From: Promethearchaeota archaeon
GTDB lineage: Archaea > Asgardarchaeota > Lokiarchaeia > Sigyniarchaeales > SOKP01
DNA: 64,000 bases
Reading direction: 5' to 3'
Assembly: GCA_016839765.1 (NCBI GenBank)
Contig: JAEOTP010000068.1
Span: 1 to 64,000, forward strand
The notes under the pieces were generated by a model. The model was not told the origin of the DNA. It saw only the letters and a list, made by a program, of their open reading frames with translations, and did not search any database. How positions within the stretch are numbered: the stretch's first letter is position 1; every line of letters begins with the position of its first letter. The translations under genes were made by a program, and so were the position numbers. Below, piece by piece: positions 36,443 through 47,479 of the stretch.

Positions 36443-37459
36443 TTATTTCTTTAGGGTAATCACAAAATCCTTAAAATCTTCATCTTGAGATAAAGTTAGC
36501 CTACTATTATTAGATAAAAACATTAATGCTAAGAACATTCTTACAAACGCAAACTTTTTATCTATATCATTTTCTTCTTCATTTTTAATTATTTCAGTTA
36601 TATCGAAAAAACTCGTTTCCTTATTATCAAATTCTGTTTTTGCCTTTATTCTATTATACCAAGAATCGTGTAATTCTTCTATACTTTGTTCTCTACCACT
36701 AATATGTTTTAATAACTCTTTTGGTAATCTGGCGTTTGATTTCATATGTATTCTTTGTTCCTTTAATTCATCTCTACGTAATCGTCGCCTTCTTAGCTTT
36801 TCTTTATTTTGCATTGTTTCTATAATTGCTGATCGCATTGCTTCAAACAATTCTTCCTTAGTAGATACTAGTAATTTTGGTTGAATGGGTTGAGGTAAGG
36901 TTTTAGGAATTGATCTCCCATGTCTTTGTCTGAATTTTTCAAGTTCTTCTTTTTTTTGAATTATTTCTTCTTCCTTTATAATACTCGATATTTTATAATG
37001 ATGTAAATAAGCAGAATTTTTTAGGGCAATTCCAGAAATTTTATAATTGATCAATTCTTCGTGAAGCATATTGCTAAAGAATTTATCAACTAGGGAAGCT
37101 AAATCATAAAAAGCTATATCTGAATCTTTTGCTAATTCAAAATCTAGTAAGCTAGAAAAAGGAGGTTTTTGCCAAAATTTTAACTCCAGTCTTTCTTTTT
37201 GTAATAGAGCAGGATCTTCTTCTTCGCCCGCTATTAATTCTTCTTCTAAAACCTCATCTAACTCATCTTCCTTGGTTCTATCTATAAATTCAGGATGGGA
37301 TACTACATCATTCAGTAATTTTATTATATCATTCTTTTTAGATTTAGAGGGGATAGTTATATTATTCTGTGTAGCAAAATCTCTTAACTCTTTTACAGTC
37401 CAATCTTTAAAATTATATCCCTCCTTTATGCCATTTTCTTTCGAAATTTCTAGCACCAC
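36443..37459 (-). CDS. scpA: Kleisin ScpA with an N-terminal SAP/HeH-like domain
   Basis: Lies between smc and scpB. Kleisin N-domain YDLASLVDKF..ISGIALKNSAYLHHYK; C-terminal wH FVRMFLALMFLSNNSRLTLSQDEDFKDF. Confidence 0.85.
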   Translation of the reverse strand: MVLEISKENGIKEGYNFKDWTVKELRDFATQNNITIPSKSKKNDIIKLLNDVVSHPEFIDRTKEDELDEVLEEELIAGEEEDPALLQKERLELKFWQKPPFSSLLDFELAKDSDIAFYDLASLVDKFFSNMLHEELINYKISGIALKNSAYLHHYKISSIIKEEEIIQKKEELEKFRQRHGRSIPKTLPQPIQPKLLVSTKEELFEAMRSAIIETMQNKEKLRRRRLRRDELKEQRIHMKSNARLPKELLKHISGREQSIEELHDSWYNRIKAKTEFDNKETSFFDITEIIKNEEENDIDKKFAFVRMFLALMFLSNNSRLTLSQDEDFKDFVITLKK

Positions 37460-37474
37460 ATTTTTTTGATAAAT

Positions 37475-40400
37475 TTAATTTTCTTCTACATTTGTAGGAA
37501 CCTCTGATAAATCTAAAAGTCGCTTTGCTTCTTCTTCTAAATCAACACTAAATACATCCGTGATACCCGATTGTTGCATTGATACCCCATATATCCTGTC
37601 CGCATTTACAATATTCTCTTCTCTATGGCTTATAACCAAAAATTGGGCTTGCGTGGAAATCTCTTTTAGCAACATTGAAACTCTATGTGTGTTAGGACCA
37701 TCCAACTGAGCATCAATCTCGTCGAGAATATAAAACGGACTTGGCATAAATTCCTGAATCGCGAAGATAAACGAGAGGGCCACGAGTGTTTTTTCTCCAC
37801 CGCTTAGAATTTCTAAGCTTGATATTTTCTTACCTCTAGGTCTTGCTTCAATGCTAATACCTCCTTCAAATGGTTTATCGGGTCTATCTAATATCATTTT
37901 AGCTGAACCTCCGGGACTTAATTTCTGAAAAATTCTACTAAATTCTCTGTTAATTTCATGATACGCTTTCATAAAAGTCCTAGTTTTTTCTAATTCAATT
38001 TTTTCAATGGCATCTAAGATTGCTTTTCTTTCTCTTTGAATTGTCTGTCTACGCATATCTATCTCATCGAATCTTTCTTTAACTGTATCATATTGTTCAA
38101 TTGCTTTTAAGTTAACTGGTTCAAGAGCCTTCTTCTTACTATTAGCTTCATTAATATCTGTTTGTAGACCGGTTTCCGATAAATCAGCGGTTACTTGTGG
38201 CAAGGAACCATAATCCTTTGATCTATGGTACAGTGTTTCAATTTGATCTGTTGTCATGATTTTTTGGGATTCATAATTATTTAATTTGGAATTTTCCATT
38301 GAAAGATCAGATTTTAAGTTATTTACAATTTTTTGATACGATTTTTGCTTTTTCCAAGATTCGTCCTTTTGATTAATGTAATCATCAATTTCTTCTTGCT
38401 TTAAACGTTTCTTTTCATTTTCACTAGTTAAATTATCTTTTACTTTTTCAATATCTTCTACTAAAGATTTGATTTCTTTTTCAGTGTTTTTTATCTCTTC
38501 GTTAAGTGAAAATATTTTTTGTTCGCGCTCTTTATTTTTATTTAATTCATTTAGTTTTTTCTGAGATTTTTGTAGATCCTTATTAAATTTATTCAATTTA
38601 CTCTGAGTCTTTTTTTGGGCTTCAAGCTCCTTGTTTTTCTCTTCGCGAATATGATCAATTTCTTTTTGAACTTCATCTACTTTTTTTTGAATATTATCTA
38701 CTTGGGAATTGAATTCTTCAATATCTTTTTTACATACATCAATATTTTTATTGGCTTCGATATTTTCTTTTGTTAATTCTTCGATGGAATTTATCATCAT
38801 CATAATATTTTCTAGAGCTCTCAGTTGATCCATTTTTTCCTCTAATTTCTTGTTATAATCTTCAGTTTCCTTTCTTATTTTCTCAATATTTACCCAATAA
38901 TTCTCTTTTTCAGTTATTAATTTTTCAATATTTTTATCCAAATTAGATTGCTCCAAGTTTAAATTTTTAATATTTTCTTGATTTGTATTTATTATTTCTT
39001 TCTTTTCCTCTATGGATTTGTTCAATTCTTTAACACTATTTTCAATTTCTAAAACATTCTCAAATAAATTTTGAATACCTCGAAGATCTTGTAATTTTGA
39101 TTGTAATTCTTCTAATTCTTTCTGTTTTTCATCAATTTGTAATTTAATTGCTGAAGAATTATCCCAATATTCATTTTTAAGGTTTTTTAATTTTTCTATC
39201 TCAGCTTTGTAATCTTCTTTTTGCTTTTCATCAATCGAAGTAGTCCTTTTTCGAATTTCGTCATCAGATTGTAAATTTAGTTGATTTATTTCTGCTATTC
39301 TTTTATTAATTTCTTCAAGTCTTTGATTAAAAAGCACTAAATTATCTGAATCATTTTTCTTTTGTGTATAAAATTCAGTTAATTTCATATCAACTTTATT
39401 TAAATCTTCATTTTGTGAGCTGATATTTTCGGAAATTTCCTCCAATTGTCTATATAATTCTTGACTCTTAGACATTGTTAATTTTCTTAAGGAGAGATAT
39501 ACGTTTTCTAAGATTTCCATTAGATCTTGCACAAAACTATCAAAAGTAGATGTAGATTGTTGAATTTCAACATCTGCAGATTCTTTTACTCTACTAATTA
39601 ACTGATCTAATGTTAAATCAACATTTTCGGTGAATAAAGTTAAAGTTTGTAAAATTGAGCTGAGCATTTGGGACATCTCTGATTTTTCTTCTTCATCATC
39701 GGTGACCCCTTCAACAGTTTTCATTATATCTACAACATCCAATACAAATTTCTTGAAATCTTCCGCAGAAGTTTCAATAGCTTCTGCATTTGACTGTTGG
39801 ATGTTGCTTTTTATAGATTCGACGGATATATTAATATTTTGAGTCAACATATTTAAAATCTGGAGAATTCCTGTAATATCTTCAGTATTTCTTTCATATT
39901 CTTTTTCTGAGTTTTCAATTTTTGATAATAAATTTTCTTTTTCAGCTGCTAAGTCATCTAAACGTTTAGTGATATTTTGCTTTCGAGTTTCAAGATTTTT
40001 TCTCTCGCTTTCAATTTGAGAAAGATTTTTATTTAAACTACTAACTTTTAAATCTAAATCTCGTTTTTCACGCTCTAGGTTTGTTAATTCTCTTTTAGAT
40101 AGTTTTAATTTAGTGTTTATATTATCTATTTTTGCTCTATTATCAAATATTTCAGATTGGATTGAATCTTGCTTCAATATTAATAGTTCTAATTCTTGTT
40201 CATTTTTTCTGTACGTAGAATCTTCAATATTTGCTTTTTCCTTAAGATTGTCCAAATTTTTGATAAGAATTTCTCTATTATCCATTAATTCTTTTAAAAT
40301 TGATTCGGTTTCTTTTCCCTTGCTTAATTCTTTAATTTTATTTTCAATGGATAATTTTCTGCTGTTTAATTTTTGGATTCTATCATTATTCATTTTAATT

Positions 40401-41923
40401 TCAGTATTTATCGAGGATAAGCTAGACTGTAATTCTGCGGATTTTGAATTCAGCTGGTATTTTTGTTCTTGTAATTCCTTAATTTTCGTTTCTAATTCTT
40501 TTTGTTTTTGATTTTCTTTTGTGATATTTCCTTTTAATTCATTAATCTTTTTCCTTAAATCTGCTTCTTCTTTTCTTACTGCATTTATTGCCTCATCGAT
40601 ACTTTCTGCTTCTCCCTTTAATTTATTTAGATCAACTTCCAATTTCTGTTTCTTTTCTTCATTTTTTATGATATTTTCTTTAAAAATTTTAATTTGGGCT
40701 TTATTGGAAGAAATATTTTGCTTTAAGTTTGAAATATCAGTTTTATGAGATGATTTCACATCTTCACTTTCGCTTATTTTTAATTCGAGTTCTGTTTGAC
40801 TTTGTTGTTTTAGTTCAATATCTTTTTTTGCATCTTCAATTTGATTTTCTAATTCAAGGATTTGATTATTTTCATTTTCAATTAACGCGTCAAACGTCAG
40901 ACCCTCTTCAAGCTTCATTAGTAAATTTTCTAAACTTTTTATTTCTTGAGATAACTTCTCAATTGATTTATGAGCTAATTCCAATGTAGTTTGATTAGAG
41001 GATAACTGAGTTTTCAATTGGGTTATATTTTCATTTATTATCTCTCGATCTTTTTCTTTTTCTGTAATTGTCTTCTGTATATTATCCATTACTAAAGATT
41101 CTTGCTTTAAAACCTCTTCTTGTCTTGTTACTTTTTCTTGTAATTCCTCAATTAGTTTATTTGATTCTTCAACTTTTTTTTCCAAAACCTCTTCTTGATC
41201 TCTTAATTTTGAAATTCTTAACGCAATTAATTGTGCGTTATAAAATTTGATTTTTTCATCCAATTCTTTCCAAGCTAAAGCATCGCTTTTCTCTTTTTCT
41301 ACTTTTTTAAGTTGTGAAGATACTTCTTTAAAAATTGCTTCAAATTGCCCTAAATCTCTCTCTGCTTTTTCTAATTCTTTTAAAGTAGAATCCTTCATCT
41401 CATCGTATTTCTGTAATCCAATTAGTTCCTCAATAAAAATTCTACGTCCTTCGGTATTCATGTGAGTCAATTCTACTATTTTACCTTGTAATACAAACTG
41501 ATTAGATCCGTCTGGATCTACATTTGCAGTCGCCAGAGCATTAAGAATTTGTTGTCGTGTAACTTTTTTCCCGTTCATTTTGTATCCTCCTCCACCACCC
41601 CGTTTTATAGTTCGAGTTATTTGAAATTCATCCCCTCCTCCAGGAAATATCTTCTCTGAATTATCAAAAAACATAGTTACTGCTGCTCTTTGTGATGGGT
41701 TTTTGCCTCTAGAACCTGCAAAAATAAGGTCCTCAAGACTTTTTGCTCTCATTGTTTTTTTACTTAATCTTCCTAAAGCAAAACATAAAGCATCAATAAT
41801 ATTTGATTTTCCTGCACCGTTAGGTCCTACTATACAAGTAAATCCACTTGAAAGTCGAATAGTCACTGTTCTATCTCCAAATGACTTAAATCCAGTCATG
41901 GAAATTTTTTTGATATAAGTCAA
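37475..41923 (-). CDS. smc: Chromosome segregation protein Smc, elongated, non-canonical apex
   Basis: GFKSFG, Walker A GPNGAGKSNI, Q-loop VLQG, PVNLKAIEQY, signature LSGGEK, Walker B LDEIDAQLD and ISH. TTG start after GGAG. Confidence 0.95.
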   Translation of the reverse strand: MTYIKKISMTGFKSFGDRTVTIRLSSGFTCIVGPNGAGKSNIIDALCFALGRLSKKTMRAKSLEDLIFAGSRGKNPSQRAAVTMFFDNSEKIFPGGGDEFQITRTIKRGGGGGYKMNGKKVTRQQILNALATANVDPDGSNQFVLQGKIVELTHMNTEGRRIFIEELIGLQKYDEMKDSTLKELEKAERDLGQFEAIFKEVSSQLKKVEKEKSDALAWKELDEKIKFYNAQLIALRISKLRDQEEVLEKKVEESNKLIEELQEKVTRQEEVLKQESLVMDNIQKTITEKEKDREIINENITQLKTQLSSNQTTLELAHKSIEKLSQEIKSLENLLMKLEEGLTFDALIENENNQILELENQIEDAKKDIELKQQSQTELELKISESEDVKSSHKTDISNLKQNISSNKAQIKIFKENIIKNEEKKQKLEVDLNKLKGEAESIDEAINAVRKEEADLRKKINELKGNITKENQKQKELETKIKELQEQKYQLNSKSAELQSSLSSINTEIKMNNDRIQKLNSRKLSIENKIKELSKGKETESILKELMDNREILIKNLDNLKEKANIEDSTYRKNEQELELLILKQDSIQSEIFDNRAKIDNINTKLKLSKRELTNLEREKRDLDLKVSSLNKNLSQIESERKNLETRKQNITKRLDDLAAEKENLLSKIENSEKEYERNTEDITGILQILNMLTQNINISVESIKSNIQQSNAEAIETSAEDFKKFVLDVVDIMKTVEGVTDDEEEKSEMSQMLSSILQTLTLFTENVDLTLDQLISRVKESADVEIQQSTSTFDSFVQDLMEILENVYLSLRKLTMSKSQELYRQLEEISENISSQNEDLNKVDMKLTEFYTQKKNDSDNLVLFNQRLEEINKRIAEINQLNLQSDDEIRKRTTSIDEKQKEDYKAEIEKLKNLKNEYWDNSSAIKLQIDEKQKELEELQSKLQDLRGIQNLFENVLEIENSVKELNKSIEEKKEIINTNQENIKNLNLEQSNLDKNIEKLITEKENYWVNIEKIRKETEDYNKKLEEKMDQLRALENIMMMINSIEELTKENIEANKNIDVCKKDIEEFNSQVDNIQKKVDEVQKEIDHIREEKNKELEAQKKTQSKLNKFNKDLQKSQKKLNELNKNKEREQKIFSLNEEIKNTEKEIKSLVEDIEKVKDNLTSENEKKRLKQEEIDDYINQKDESWKKQKSYQKIVNNLKSDLSMENSKLNNYESQKIMTTDQIETLYHRSKDYGSLPQVTADLSETGLQTDINEANSKKKALEPVNLKAIEQYDTVKERFDEIDMRRQTIQRERKAILDAIEKIELEKTRTFMKAYHEINREFSRIFQKLSPGGSAKMILDRPDKPFEGGISIEARPRGKKISSLEILSGGEKTLVALSFIFAIQEFMPSPFYILDEIDAQLDGPNTHRVSMLLKEISTQAQFLVISHREENIVNADRIYGVSMQQSGITDVFSVDLEEEAKRLLDLSEVPTNVEEN

Positions 41924-42093
41924 AATATTAACTCCATTTCATTAGTTATTTAGAATAAAGAATAAACATATCTATATATATACTCTTCATTCAAATAGAA
42001 AAGATTTTGCATTTTACTTAAAATTAGTTATAATTAGAATTATCCAAATTAAACATTTGGATATATCCACAAAGATAAAAATTTTTTTAGTCC

Positions 42094-43287
42094 TTAAAAT
42101 TTATTAAATATTGCATCTGCAATAGCTTTAAGTTGTTTTGGATTTATTGCCATAAAATAGAATTTATAATTTAATAAATTTTTTTGATCAGATTTTAATA
42201 AGGTTTGATCACTTCTTTTTGAGAAACTCAAAACTCCGATACTATGTAATGCTTTAATTAATTCATAAAATTCATCCATTCTTTTATTATATTCTAATGA
42301 TTCACAAGATATATAATATAATTCCTTTAGTTCATCTATTGTTATATAATAATTAGGTCTTTTTAAAAAGAAATTCGCTAAGTTATCAAGAAAGATTAGA
42401 GTTAATATATCTTCTTCAGAAATATAAGTTAACATGGCAAACTCATCTGATAGGTGAATTGAATCAAATTGATTTTGAAGTATTTCAATAATCTCCAGAT
42501 TATTTATAACATTTTGATGAGCTAATATTGGATATAGTTCTCTTAATATCTCAACCCCTTTTCCCGGTACAGGAACATAATGTTCAAAAATCAAATCGCT
42601 TATAAATTCAATTAATTCTTTATCAATTCCATTGATGAAGGTTAAAGCAACTCGTTGTTCAATAATATCAAGAAGTTCATGGTAATTGTAATAGCTTAAT
42701 TTTTTTTTAAGATCAAATTTATTGATTAAATCTAGAGTTTCAGGTTTCAATACTTTATTTACAGTTGAAATTGAACTAATTTTTGATTCTTTTCCATATT
42801 GTAAGAATTTCTTATAATATTCTGGTTTTAAATGCTCAATATTGTTGAAAACAAGGATCAAATTATTTCTAGTTTTGTTACAGATTAGTTTGAAAATATT
42901 CCATAATTCAGATAAATTACAATTGAGGAATTGAAGATAATCAACTTTGATATTAGTAAAACTACTAATATCAGTTATAATGGAGAAAACAATTTCATTA
43001 ATGCTTTTTTCTTTACAATCTATTGGAATTTTTATGAAACCTATAAAATCTTCTTCCGTTTTAATTAGATCTTGTATAACTTTATTAATAATTACTTTTT
43101 TACCAATTCCTTGGATACCTTGATATAATACGTTTAAATTAAACTCATCTGAAACTGAATCTTTCAGAATTGAATACAAGTTGACTTCTTCTTTCTTCCT
43201 ATGTAAAATCTCAGGGGGAACATAATTAGGATCAAAAATAGCTTTTGGTCCAATACAAAAATTCATAGATTTTGATTTTCCAATCAT
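42094..43287 (-). CDS. Orc1/Cdc6-family AAA+ paralog with degenerate ATPase motifs
   Basis: FDPNYVPPEILHR is a Cdc6 N-terminal signature; GIQGIGKK, LILVFNNIE, YNYHELLDIIEQRV and a C-terminal wH. Confidence 0.85.
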   Translation of the reverse strand: MIGKSKSMNFCIGPKAIFDPNYVPPEILHRKKEEVNLYSILKDSVSDEFNLNVLYQGIQGIGKKVIINKVIQDLIKTEEDFIGFIKIPIDCKEKSINEIVFSIITDISSFTNIKVDYLQFLNCNLSELWNIFKLICNKTRNNLILVFNNIEHLKPEYYKKFLQYGKESKISSISTVNKVLKPETLDLINKFDLKKKLSYYNYHELLDIIEQRVALTFINGIDKELIEFISDLIFEHYVPVPGKGVEILRELYPILAHQNVINNLEIIEILQNQFDSIHLSDEFAMLTYISEEDILTLIFLDNLANFFLKRPNYYITIDELKELYYISCESLEYNKRMDEFYELIKALHSIGVLSFSKRSDQTLLKSDQKNLLNYKFYFMAINPKQLKAIADAIFNKF

Positions 43288-43334
43288 TTTTTTTATTTTA
43301 GTTTTTGTTTTATATTCTAATAATTTATATTTAA

Positions 43335-43354
43335 ACCCCCCCAGAGAGAGGGGT
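43335..43354 (-). promoter_or_regulatory. G-string/short palindrome abutting the TATA-like box upstream of the cdc6 paralog
   Basis: Minus strand reads ACCCCTCTCTCTGGGGGGGT-TTAAATATAAA, a GC island in very AT-rich intergenic DNA. Confidence 0.4.
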
Positions 43355-43397
43355 CATAAGAAGTAAAAATAAAGATCTAAATTATTAAAACTGAAGA

Positions 43398-43423
43398 ATT
43401 CAGAGTCAGATTCAGAGTCAGAT
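43398..43423. repeat. 12-bp tandem duplication (ATTCAGAGTCAG x2)
   Basis: ATTCAGAGTCAG ATTCAGAGTCAG AT, just downstream of the nitrilase stop. Confidence 0.8.
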
Positions 43424-46318: not shown

Positions 46319-47479
46319 TTGTCCACTATTGTTGCTTTATCATATTTTCACCGAAAAATTGGTCCATTAGTATTCTATTCTTATCCAAGTGTTATGCTAG
46401 ATGACCAGTTGTCAATTAGAATTGCTAATATTATGGATCAGACTGTTAGTGAAGGTTTTTTTACACACTCATTCGAAAATAAAAATTCTATGAATTTTTA
46501 TTTTGAAATACATTCAGATTGGAATCGCGGAAATAAAGAAATGTTAATGATTTCAATTATTCTTGATCGTCATACATCACCAGAGATAGAGCAAAATATT
46601 TCAACACTTTGTACTGAATTCTCTGAAAAACTTCAATCAAATGAGGAAATTTTTACTGCTTTTTACGTAAATGATGTAAATAATTTTGATGAGACTGATA
46701 AAGAGTTAATCTTAAAAAATAATTCTTCAATAAAAACCTGGGTTAAAGAGCTATACTGGGCTACACTCGAAGAAACAAGAGAAAAAAGTGAAGAAGAAAA
46801 AATTGCCATATTATTGAATAAAGAACATATATTTTCAACGTTAAAAAAGCTATCAAAAGGACCTATAACTTTAGAGGGATTGAATGAGTGGTTTAATGAG
46901 ATTTTCCCTGATTTAAATTTCAATGATTTAATTGACCTTTTAGCAGAAAAACAATTTATTTTTATAAACCAAATCGGGATTGTAGAAAAATACATTTTAT
47001 TAGTAAAAGAAGTTAATGCTGAAAGAATACCTCCCGATAGTGTTATCGAGTATATTGATGAGACTCCAGAACAAATCGAAAGAGAACTAATTGACTTACT
47101 AATCCCAAAAGTGCAAGAATATTTTAGTATTTATGAAAATAAAAGCAAAAAAGAACTAGAAGAAGATACTCTAACATTATTCCAGATAATATCTGATGCA
47201 CGAAAATATAACGTTCTTTCAGAATTAAGGAATGGTTTAATATCAAAAGACAAACTTCCGAAGCTTGTTTCAAAGAGAACTCTTGACAACTTAAATACTT
47301 CATTAGATTTTTTGAAAAAATATGATGTCATCGAAGAATTAAAGTATAAAAATGAAACTTATATAGTACTAAAAACAAATATTCAAATTACAACAACATT
47401 TCCCGAATATTTGAGGAAACTTTTACCAAAAGAAAGCAAACCTGTTGTAGCGAAAAAATATATTCCAAAAAATCGCTAA
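46319..47479 (+). CDS. uDENN/longin-domain protein (NPRL2/FLCN-like N-terminus) with probable C-terminal winged helices
   Basis: N-terminal IVALSYFHRKIGPLVFYSYP fits the F-x-x-x-x-GP-x4-5-P longin/uDENN signature; RGNKEMLMISIIL. TTG start after GGAG. Confidence 0.7.
   Translation: MSTIVALSYFHRKIGPLVFYSYPSVMLDDQLSIRIANIMDQTVSEGFFTHSFENKNSMNFYFEIHSDWNRGNKEMLMISIILDRHTSPEIEQNISTLCTEFSEKLQSNEEIFTAFYVNDVNNFDETDKELILKNNSSIKTWVKELYWATLEETREKSEEEKIAILLNKEHIFSTLKKLSKGPITLEGLNEWFNEIFPDLNFNDLIDLLAEKQFIFINQIGIVEKYILLVKEVNAERIPPDSVIEYIDETPEQIERELIDLLIPKVQEYFSIYENKSKKELEEDTLTLFQIISDARKYNVLSELRNGLISKDKLPKLVSKRTLDNLNTSLDFLKKYDVIEELKYKNETYIVLKTNIQITTTFPEYLRKLLPKESKPVVAKKYIPKNR

Follow-up and report, generated by a model that had tools for sequence, protein, structure and literature searches.

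OrcX, a predicted ATPase-dead Orc1/Cdc6 paralogue of Asgard archaea, and a promoter box resembling a DNA-damage-responsive element

A described precedent for the system reported here comes from Sulfolobus, where a DNA-damage-responsive element (DDRE; consensus AATAGTTTCRGWDTACTCWS, hexamer ANTTTC) is bound by the Orc1/Cdc6-family protein Orc1-2, which controls the induction of dpo2 (PolB2), tfb3, ups and ced by damage (PMC6061795). For Asgard archaea only Cdc6-1 and Cdc6-2 have been listed, and the split that produced ORC1-5 has been dated after the Asgard divergence (PMC7058166, PMC12680538). Here we analyze a gene that we name OrcX, located in a 64,000-nucleotide (nt) stretch of a Promethearchaeota archaeon genome (assembly GCA_016839765.1, contig JAEOTP010000068.1, positions 1 to 64,000; this whole stretch is the window). 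We find that OrcX belongs to a clade of Orc1/Cdc6 paralogues that is predicted to have lost ATP hydrolysis, and that in several Asgard lineages its promoter carries a box resembling the Sulfolobus element. A literature search, with subscription journals outside its coverage, returned no described dead Asgard Orc paralogue, OrcX clade or Orc-Smc link. The gene and the parts of its protein (numbered in amino acids, aa) lie in the window as follows.

42094..43287, minus strand: OrcX gene, predicted ATPase-dead Orc1/Cdc6 paralogue of 397 aa (open reading frame (ORF), TIGR02928, profile search, AlphaFold2 model, Foldseek, tree)
43198..43236, minus strand: N-terminal Orc1/Cdc6 signature FDPNYVPPEILHR (aa 18-30), kept (sequence, alignment)
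43096..43119, minus strand: degenerate Walker A GIQGIGKK (aa 57-64), with the glycines and Lys63 kept and the Mg-binding Thr/Ser replaced by Lys (alignment)
42835..42861, minus strand: degenerate Walker B LILVFNNIE (aa 143-151), with DE replaced by NN (alignment)
42556..42573, minus strand: sensor-2 region PVPGKG (aa 239-244), GDARKA in canonical paralogues (alignment; family signature PG..I..L[KR])
42097..42408, minus strand: winged-helix domain (aa ~294-397; alignment, AlphaFold2 model, charge)

As judged by sequence models, the assignment of OrcX to the Orc1/Cdc6 family is real but weak. TIGR02928 matches it with 52 bits (E = 4.9e-14), below the curated cut-off of 181.3, or with 46.7 bits when the whole host genome is searched, and Pfam returns Cdc6_C alone (E = 0.004). 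The host genome also encodes two canonical Orc1/Cdc6 paralogues that have intact GKT and DE motifs and score 365 and 210 bits. An AlphaFold2 model of OrcX built on 64 homologues (predicted local distance difference test score, pLDDT, 84.5; predicted template modelling score 0.82) has an AAA+ base, in which a helical insert separates strands 2 and 3, together with a lid and a winged helix. Its top Foldseek match is Cdc6 of P. aerophilum (1fnn_A; TM-score 0.70), followed by 2qby, 1w5t and eukaryotic Orc1 and Orc4. The N-terminal F.P.Y.P..L.HR.E motif is present as FDPNYVPPEILHRKKEE, with P24 invariant and R30 nearly so across the clade. A sequence-only reading of the window had called the gene an Orc1/Cdc6 paralogue with dead motifs that keeps the N-terminal signature and the C-terminal winged helix; the strings it quoted are exact, and the sequence and the three-domain model agree with both claims.

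The degenerate motifs are fixed among close relatives. In an alignment of OrcX with 120 homologues of 54-94% identity, G57, G60, G62 and K63 do not vary; position 64 is occupied by K, Q or R in 121/121 rows, never by T or S; N149 is found in 120/121 rows and E151 in all of them. As read from alignment, there being no solved structure, the arginine finger and the sensor-2 arginine are replaced as well, with canonical LDSRV aligned to LDLIN and canonical GDARKA to VPGKGV. Five orthologues at 91-94% identity have pairwise ratios of nonsynonymous to synonymous substitution (dN/dS) of 0.16-0.30. Because the motifs are fixed in 120 homologues and dN/dS lies in this range, they reflect neither chance nor decay, and local decay or a pseudogene is ruled out. 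We conclude that OrcX is kept under purifying selection as a predicted ATPase-dead protein.

The same holds in part for the wider clade. Across 46 full-length representative clusters, Walker B reads DE in a single one (the others have DS, NN, DN, DD, QK, TN and similar pairs), Walker A ends in KT or KS in 22 and in KN, KK, RT, KR, KG, KA or KH in 23, and the sensor-2 position carries the signature PG..I..L[KR]. The sequence-only reading had taken orthologues with intact GKT and DE motifs as a sign of local decay. Intact GKT or GKS does occur, in about half of the clade, while DE is confined to that one cluster of the 46. Since DE is so rare and the sensor-2 signature is clade-wide, the loss of ATP hydrolysis is predicted to be ancestral to the OrcX clade, and the GKK/NN state of the window protein is a putative derived form, that of the Loki crown group. 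The corresponding motifs are GKT/HN in genus g4 and GMT/DN in Thor. Throughout the clade the P-loop glycines do not vary, which argues that a nucleotide pocket of some kind is probably retained. The one representative with DE (P0288; IILQFDEINLS) also has GKT and may be a less degenerate or reverted member of the clade.

To define the distribution of OrcX, we searched 301 Asgard genomes and found it in 159; a second query, a distant OrcX member, gave the same core distribution. The lineage names used here rest on submitter labels of encoded proteins, which are not always reliable. Counts by family are as follows.

f1 (the family of the host; Lokiarchaeota / Promethearchaeota): OrcX in 59/68 genomes
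f2: OrcX in 7/7 genomes
f9 (Thorarchaeota): OrcX in 64/76 genomes
f14 (Promethearchaeota, a phylum-level label only): OrcX in 18/19 genomes
f21 (Ca. Freyarchaeum): OrcX in 5/6 genomes
f17: OrcX in 2/4 genomes, 4/4 by the second query
f4 (submitter label Ca. Deferrimicrobium, off-lineage and uninformative): OrcX in 1/1 genome
f8 (Ca. Asgardarchaeum): OrcX in 1/1 genome
f28: OrcX in 1/1 genome

OrcX was not found in f7 (Heimdallarchaeota label; 0/28 genomes), f5 (Ca. Odinarchaeum label; 0/4 genomes) or several other Asgard families in the same search. An IQ-TREE tree of 70 rows places all OrcX rows (29/29) on one long-stemmed branch with 100% support in the Shimodaira-Hasegawa-like approximate likelihood ratio test (SH-aLRT), apart from three canonical Asgard clades, namely a Cdc6-1-type, a Cdc6-2-type and a third, and branching inside OrcX broadly tracks taxonomy. 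These results indicate that OrcX is an old, vertically inherited Orc1/Cdc6 clade present in several Asgard classes. A divergent Cdc6-like gene of genome G006 (L089) that we considered as a possible OrcX falls in the Cdc6-2-type clade. Additionally, one Loki genome holds a second, very divergent OrcX copy (L023; G207:C10:52813-53862) with 33% identity, GKT/TN motifs and a different gene context. In a search of 1.84 billion representative proteins, the OrcX clade profile retrieved 54 proteins at E <= 1e-30, and scores in the canonical Orc1/Cdc6 range began at about 1e-25 and continued downward. Against the PDB, the best match of the profile is S. solfataricus Orc1-1 (4.6e-25), followed by eukaryotic Orc1/Cdc6 (about 1e-9), Orc5 (7e-5) and Orc4 (1e-3); Orc2 and Orc3 are absent among these PDB matches, and the search shows no specific affinity of OrcX to Orc2-5.

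We then compared charge and DNA-contact residues between OrcX and its canonical relatives. OrcX proteins are acidic (mean isoelectric point (pI) 5.7, net charge -9), and their C-terminal 105 residues have a mean pI of 5.3 and a net charge of -4.9, compared with pI 8.0-8.9 in the three canonical clades. In the window protein, the canonical Arg-Arg of the recognition helix is aligned to Asp-Glu and the GRxGR-type wing is gone. In bulk charge this protein is an exception, since a Loki-specific, Lys-rich wing loop of low pLDDT brings its winged helix to pI 8.0. The composition and alignment thus suggest that the basic DNA-contact surface of the winged helix is lost in most OrcX lineages. Because the clade is acidic and the winged helix of the window protein is not, DNA binding is doubtful for the clade as a whole and less so for the window protein.

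The promoter of OrcX gives a second line of evidence. Two elements outside the coding sequence are needed here, one in the window and one elsewhere in the host genome.

43328..43371, minus strand: conserved OrcX promoter, with the box TTTTTACTTCTTATGACCCCTCTCTCT, a run of seven G and the TATA box TTTAAATA, ~45-80 nt before the ATG
G000 contig C64:78879-83804 (L110:879-5805), minus strand: RadA-like/PolB operon behind a second copy of the box

In f1, a block of ~45 nt, TTTTACTTYYAATSACCYCTCTCT, followed by a G-run and then by TTTAAATA, is found at 16/16 OrcX loci outside genus g4 and begins 72-105 nt ahead of the ATG; in g4 the box is inverted. From these OrcX promoters only, we built a 24-column position weight matrix (PWM) and scanned both strands of the 3.32-Mb host genome (6.6 Mb). 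Two sites exceed 22 bits, the OrcX promoter itself (32.7) and C64:83781-83804 (33.8); the next-best site has 21.8 bits. An operon begins ~120 nt downstream of the second site; it holds genes for a Rad51/RadA-like protein (PF08423, 2e-15; P-loop GDKKVTT) and a Zn-ribbon protein, an ORF of 92 aa, and the gene for a divergent family-B DNA polymerase (PF00136; motif C HGIVDS). As an independent check, the OrcX-derived matrix was run on 30 loci of ~3.7 kb around the orthologues of the RadA-like gene in other f1 genomes. The top match lies 100-170 nt upstream of the RadA-like gene, on its strand, in 30/30 of these relatives (16-35 bits). In Loki f1, then, the box appears to be common only to OrcX and the RadA-like/PolB operon, and no box was seen before the two canonical Orc genes of the host genome. 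Generic damage-type patterns gave 22 scattered matches in the host genome; the most consensus-like of them, on contig C2, was dropped because it has no clear downstream gene. As a separate observation, OrcX and the RadA-like/PolB operon bring several apparently crippled enzymes under one control element. Just past the CN-hydrolase stop and upstream of the OrcX box, the window also has an exact tandem repeat, CTGACTCTGAAT x2 (43398-43421, minus strand); no copy of it was seen in L008, the closest relative examined.

In other lineages the box comes closer to the Sulfolobus element. An ACTTTC or AGTTTC core precedes OrcX in Thor, f2, f14, f17, f21 and f28. For instance, in Thor AATACTTTCGG is found before OrcX at 10/10 loci, with a TATA box 10-18 nt further on, and in f28 the box AATACTTTCGGATTACTCTC agrees with the Sulfolobus consensus at 19/20 positions. 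The cores are ATACTTTCAG in f14, AGTTTCGG or ACTTTCGG in Frey (f21), ATAGTTTCAATGACCTCTC in f17 and TTACTTTCATTGAAC and TTACTTTCGGTGACC in f2, and the f2 and f17 forms are intermediate between these and the Loki form. The same type of box stands before a Cdc6-2-type gene in Thor, f17 and f28; it is absent before the Cdc6-1-type and third-clade genes examined. Within the genus of the host, a Cdc6-2-type ('mid' clade) gene is encoded in four other genomes.

Based on these data, we favor, with confidence and doubt in equal parts, the reading that OrcX is a non-enzymatic Orc-like protein of a damage-response regulon that has kept the initiator fold and lost ATP hydrolysis. OrcX would be transcribed from its own promoter and, when DNA is damaged or replication stressed, switched on alongside genes for repair and lesion tolerance. 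Having no enzymatic activity, it might then act as a protein-binding decoy or adaptor on an active Orc1/Cdc6 or on MCM and, for example, hold back or re-target initiation. OrcX is probably a target of the damage regulon rather than its DNA-binding regulator. A more specific version, which we regard as speculative and rather unlikely, is that OrcX is a damage-induced "anti-initiator", a dead Orc1/Cdc6 mimic that is co-produced with a RadA paralogue and a lesion-tolerance polymerase and that blocks or re-targets helicase loading during repair. Several points weigh against a damage-response role. The evidence for a damage regulon is a cis-element. The Loki f1 box has ACTTCC or ACTTTT where ANTTTC would be expected and agrees with the consensus at only ~12/20 positions, so that its putative homology to the Sulfolobus element depends on the f2 and f17 intermediates. 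In f4 and f8 no box is evident ahead of OrcX. A Cdc6-2-type gene, the presumed binder of the box, was not found in the host genome (a 96%-complete assembly) or in G201. Finally, the winged helix of the window protein has a pI of 8.0 rather than an acidic one, and the Loki protein may bind DNA.

The gene order around OrcX bears on a different proposal, that of a partnership with Smc. The sequence-only reading had placed OrcX 170 nt ahead of smc and in the same orientation, and this is correct: both genes are on the minus strand and smc starts at 41923. The features of this side of the locus are as follows.

37475..41923, minus strand: smc, 1482 aa, a neighbor only and on present evidence outside the OrcX unit (ORF, Pfam, synteny)
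41924..42093, minus strand: OrcX-smc spacer of 170 nt, poorly conserved except for a TATA-like element and GGAG before smc, with no damage-type box
42077..42081, minus strand: run of five T, 13 nt past the OrcX stop, a candidate archaeal terminator

On the same strand, smc is followed by a weak ScpA (338 aa) and then ScpB, and OrcX is preceded by genes for a CN-hydrolase and a HAD hydrolase. Elsewhere the OrcX-smc spacer measures 117-200 nt, and a T-run is found in it in most relatives. As judged from sequence alone, relatives' spacers hold a TATA-like element before smc and a T-run after the OrcX stop, and OrcX and smc appear to have separate promoters. The ScpA-like protein (36443-37459, minus strand) matches the ScpA model at its C-terminus only (E = 0.002) and has weak HeH/LEM, Ish1 and Rho_N matches at its N-terminus. 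Pfam returned no hinge-domain match for the window Smc.

We tested synteny at 40 OrcX loci from 9 families, searched with the neighbor proteins of the window, and traced the location of smc in genomes of g4, f2, f4 and f21. Collinearity of the whole block (HAD / CN-hydrolase / OrcX / smc / scpA / scpB) is confined to eight f1 genera. OrcX and smc are co-oriented and 108-200 nt apart in g1, g2, g3, g5, g6, g7 and g9. In g8 (L025:10805-12000) a 1.2-kb insert, holding an opposite-strand ORF as read from the reverse strand, lies between them. Genus g4 keeps HAD / CN-hydrolase / OrcX, but its long Smc, of the same kind (1487 aa), is encoded on the opposite strand at a distance of 30-39 kb; in f2 the long Smc (1492 aa) is megabases from OrcX. 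In the seven other OrcX-bearing families, no smc, scpA or scpB lies within ~12 kb downstream or 6 kb upstream of OrcX. The proposal of an Smc loader or partner, also made in the sequence-only reading, thus does not hold up: linkage to smc is lost in g4 and f2 and absent in seven other families. Conservation of the linkage in relatives had been set beforehand as what this proposal depends on and, because it is not conserved, the proposal is unsupported; the 40 loci and the smc locations rule out an Smc partnership as a conserved link. The upstream HAD and CN-hydrolase genes are linked to OrcX as well as smc is, or better, which argues for plain block synteny. Gene order therefore indicates that the adjacency of OrcX and smc is a local accident, and a tempting but unsupported tie of OrcX to the unusual Smc is thereby removed. 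Two observations on the neighborhood stand apart from this comparison. The g4 and f2 genomes (G144:C10, G040:C25, G210:C1:1712176) encode a second Smc of canonical length (1196-1206 aa) beside the long one. In addition, outside the Loki family OrcX has, in five families, a Roadblock/LC7 neighbor of 194-500 aa (loci L027, L029, L030, L038-L041, L044, L045); the best candidates for this type of Roadblock protein in the host genome are on other contigs, and the uDENN/longin gene at 46319-47479, considered as its displaced equivalent, has no similarity to it.

Other readings of OrcX have to be weighed against a role as a non-enzymatic target of a damage regulon. OrcX might itself be the transcription factor that acts on the box, autoregulating and controlling the RadA-like/PolB operon as an analogue of Orc1-2 with no need for ATP hydrolysis. 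In nearly all lineages OrcX itself has the box in its promoter, a single operon accounts for the other strong site in the host genome, no Cdc6-2-type paralogue was found in the host genome or G201, the Loki winged helix is close to neutral and carries a Lys-rich wing, and Orc1-2 is a precedent for an Orc1/Cdc6 protein as a regulator. However, Thor, f14, f21 and f28 combine a box conserved at least as well with a strongly acidic OrcX winged helix (net -4 to -14), other residues stand in place of the canonical recognition-helix Arg-Arg, and OrcX lies outside the Cdc6-2/Orc1-2-type clade (separate with 100% SH-aLRT); on balance we consider a regulator of this kind improbable, with perhaps one chance in several. 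The architecture of OrcX would also suit a constitutive non-catalytic subunit of a heteromeric initiator that works with Cdc6-1 and/or Cdc6-2 at origins, in parallel with the inactive subunits of eukaryotic ORC; the sequence-only reading had likewise raised a structural subunit of an ORC-like complex. The full Orc1/Cdc6 architecture with dead motifs, the invariant P-loop glycines that suggest a retained pocket, and the single-copy, vertical inheritance of OrcX alongside canonical paralogues are consistent with such a subunit. It would have no arginine finger to donate to a neighbor, though, and the profile matches (Orc5 7e-5 and Orc4 1e-3 versus 4.6e-25 for Orc1-1) show no specific similarity to Orc2-5. 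Furthermore, OrcX adjoins no origin-type Orc gene, was found in none of the 28 Heimdall-labelled and none of the 4 Odin genomes, and has a promoter that looks regulated rather than housekeeping, all of which makes this subunit quite unlikely.

Two further readings draw on neighboring genes. That OrcX loads, or partners with, the unusual long Smc-ScpAB complex encoded downstream is suggested by the co-orientation and the 108-200 nt distance in seven f1 genera (with the 1.2-kb insert in g8) and by the occurrence of the GKK/NN variant in the same genera that keep the smc adjacency. Yet in g4 and f2 the gene for this same long Smc (1487-1492 aa) is remote from OrcX, no smc is nearby in the seven other families, HAD and CN-hydrolase are linked as well or better, the g8 insert with its opposite-strand ORF splits the two genes, and their promoter-like and terminator-like signals are separate with no shared box, and so we think this function very unlikely. 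Alternatively, outside the Loki family, OrcX could work with its Roadblock/LC7 neighbor in a regulatory module of the GTPase type that has no connection with DNA damage. One specific Roadblock subfamily is divergently encoded 150-400 bp upstream of OrcX in f2, f4, f14, f17 and f21, and the copy adjacent to OrcX is by far the best reciprocal match in 3/5 genomes tested. But neither Loki f1 nor Thor has the pair, Asgard genomes encode Roadblock proteins in very large numbers, and these proteins have no known functional link with AAA+ initiators, leaving such a module with only the slightest probability.

If these findings are true, Asgard archaea keep a fourth, catalytically dead Orc1/Cdc6 clade beside the canonical ones, which is not in PMC12680538 or PMC7058166, and OrcX is an independent case of the step taken by eukaryotic ORC, in which initiator paralogues were kept after losing ATP hydrolysis. 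If the box has been read correctly, the Orc1-2/DDRE promoter element, so far studied in Sulfolobales, reaches Asgard archaea, and the regulon would be much older than thought. For cultured Lokiarchaeia, this would define a small target set consisting of OrcX and the RadA-like/polymerase operon. Were the more speculative anti-initiator version true, OrcX would be an archaeal replication-checkpoint effector found from Thor to Loki lineages and controlled by the promoter element that also drives the damage response of Sulfolobus.

Comparison with known systems places OrcX among, and apart from, several of them. With archaeal Orc1/Cdc6 (TIGR02928; 1fnn, 2qby_A, 2v1u) it shares the three-domain fold, the helical insert, the N-terminal motif, the length and the P-loop glycines. 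OrcX differs in having other residues in place of the Walker A Thr, the Walker B DE, the arginine finger and the sensor-2 Arg, in its score of 52 bits against a cut-off of 181, in the change of RR to DE, in its acidity in most lineages and in its long-stemmed clade. The likeness to ParB-type Smc loaders is confined to the idea of a DNA-bound factor encoded near smc; OrcX has a different fold, no CTPase and no conserved smc linkage. Eukaryotic ORC offers a parallel in that Orc2 and Orc3, and the ATP-binding but non-hydrolysing Orc4 and Orc5, are also Orc1/Cdc6-derived AAA+ and winged-helix proteins kept after catalysis was lost. Orc4 supplies an arginine finger, and OrcX has none of that kind; it has no specific sequence or fold affinity to Orc2-5 beyond the superfamily, and it was not found in the Heimdall-labelled genomes searched. 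Sulfolobus Orc1-2 differs from OrcX in clade, OrcX being outside the Cdc6-2/Orc1-2-type group, and in that OrcX is without working ATPase motifs and its Loki box has drifted from ANTTTC. In both cases, however, an Orc1/Cdc6-family protein is tied to a promoter element of the AATAGTTTCRGWDTACTCWS type; the induction of dpo2 in Sulfolobus is Orc1-2-dependent, and the element in the host genome stands before a divergent family-B polymerase operon.

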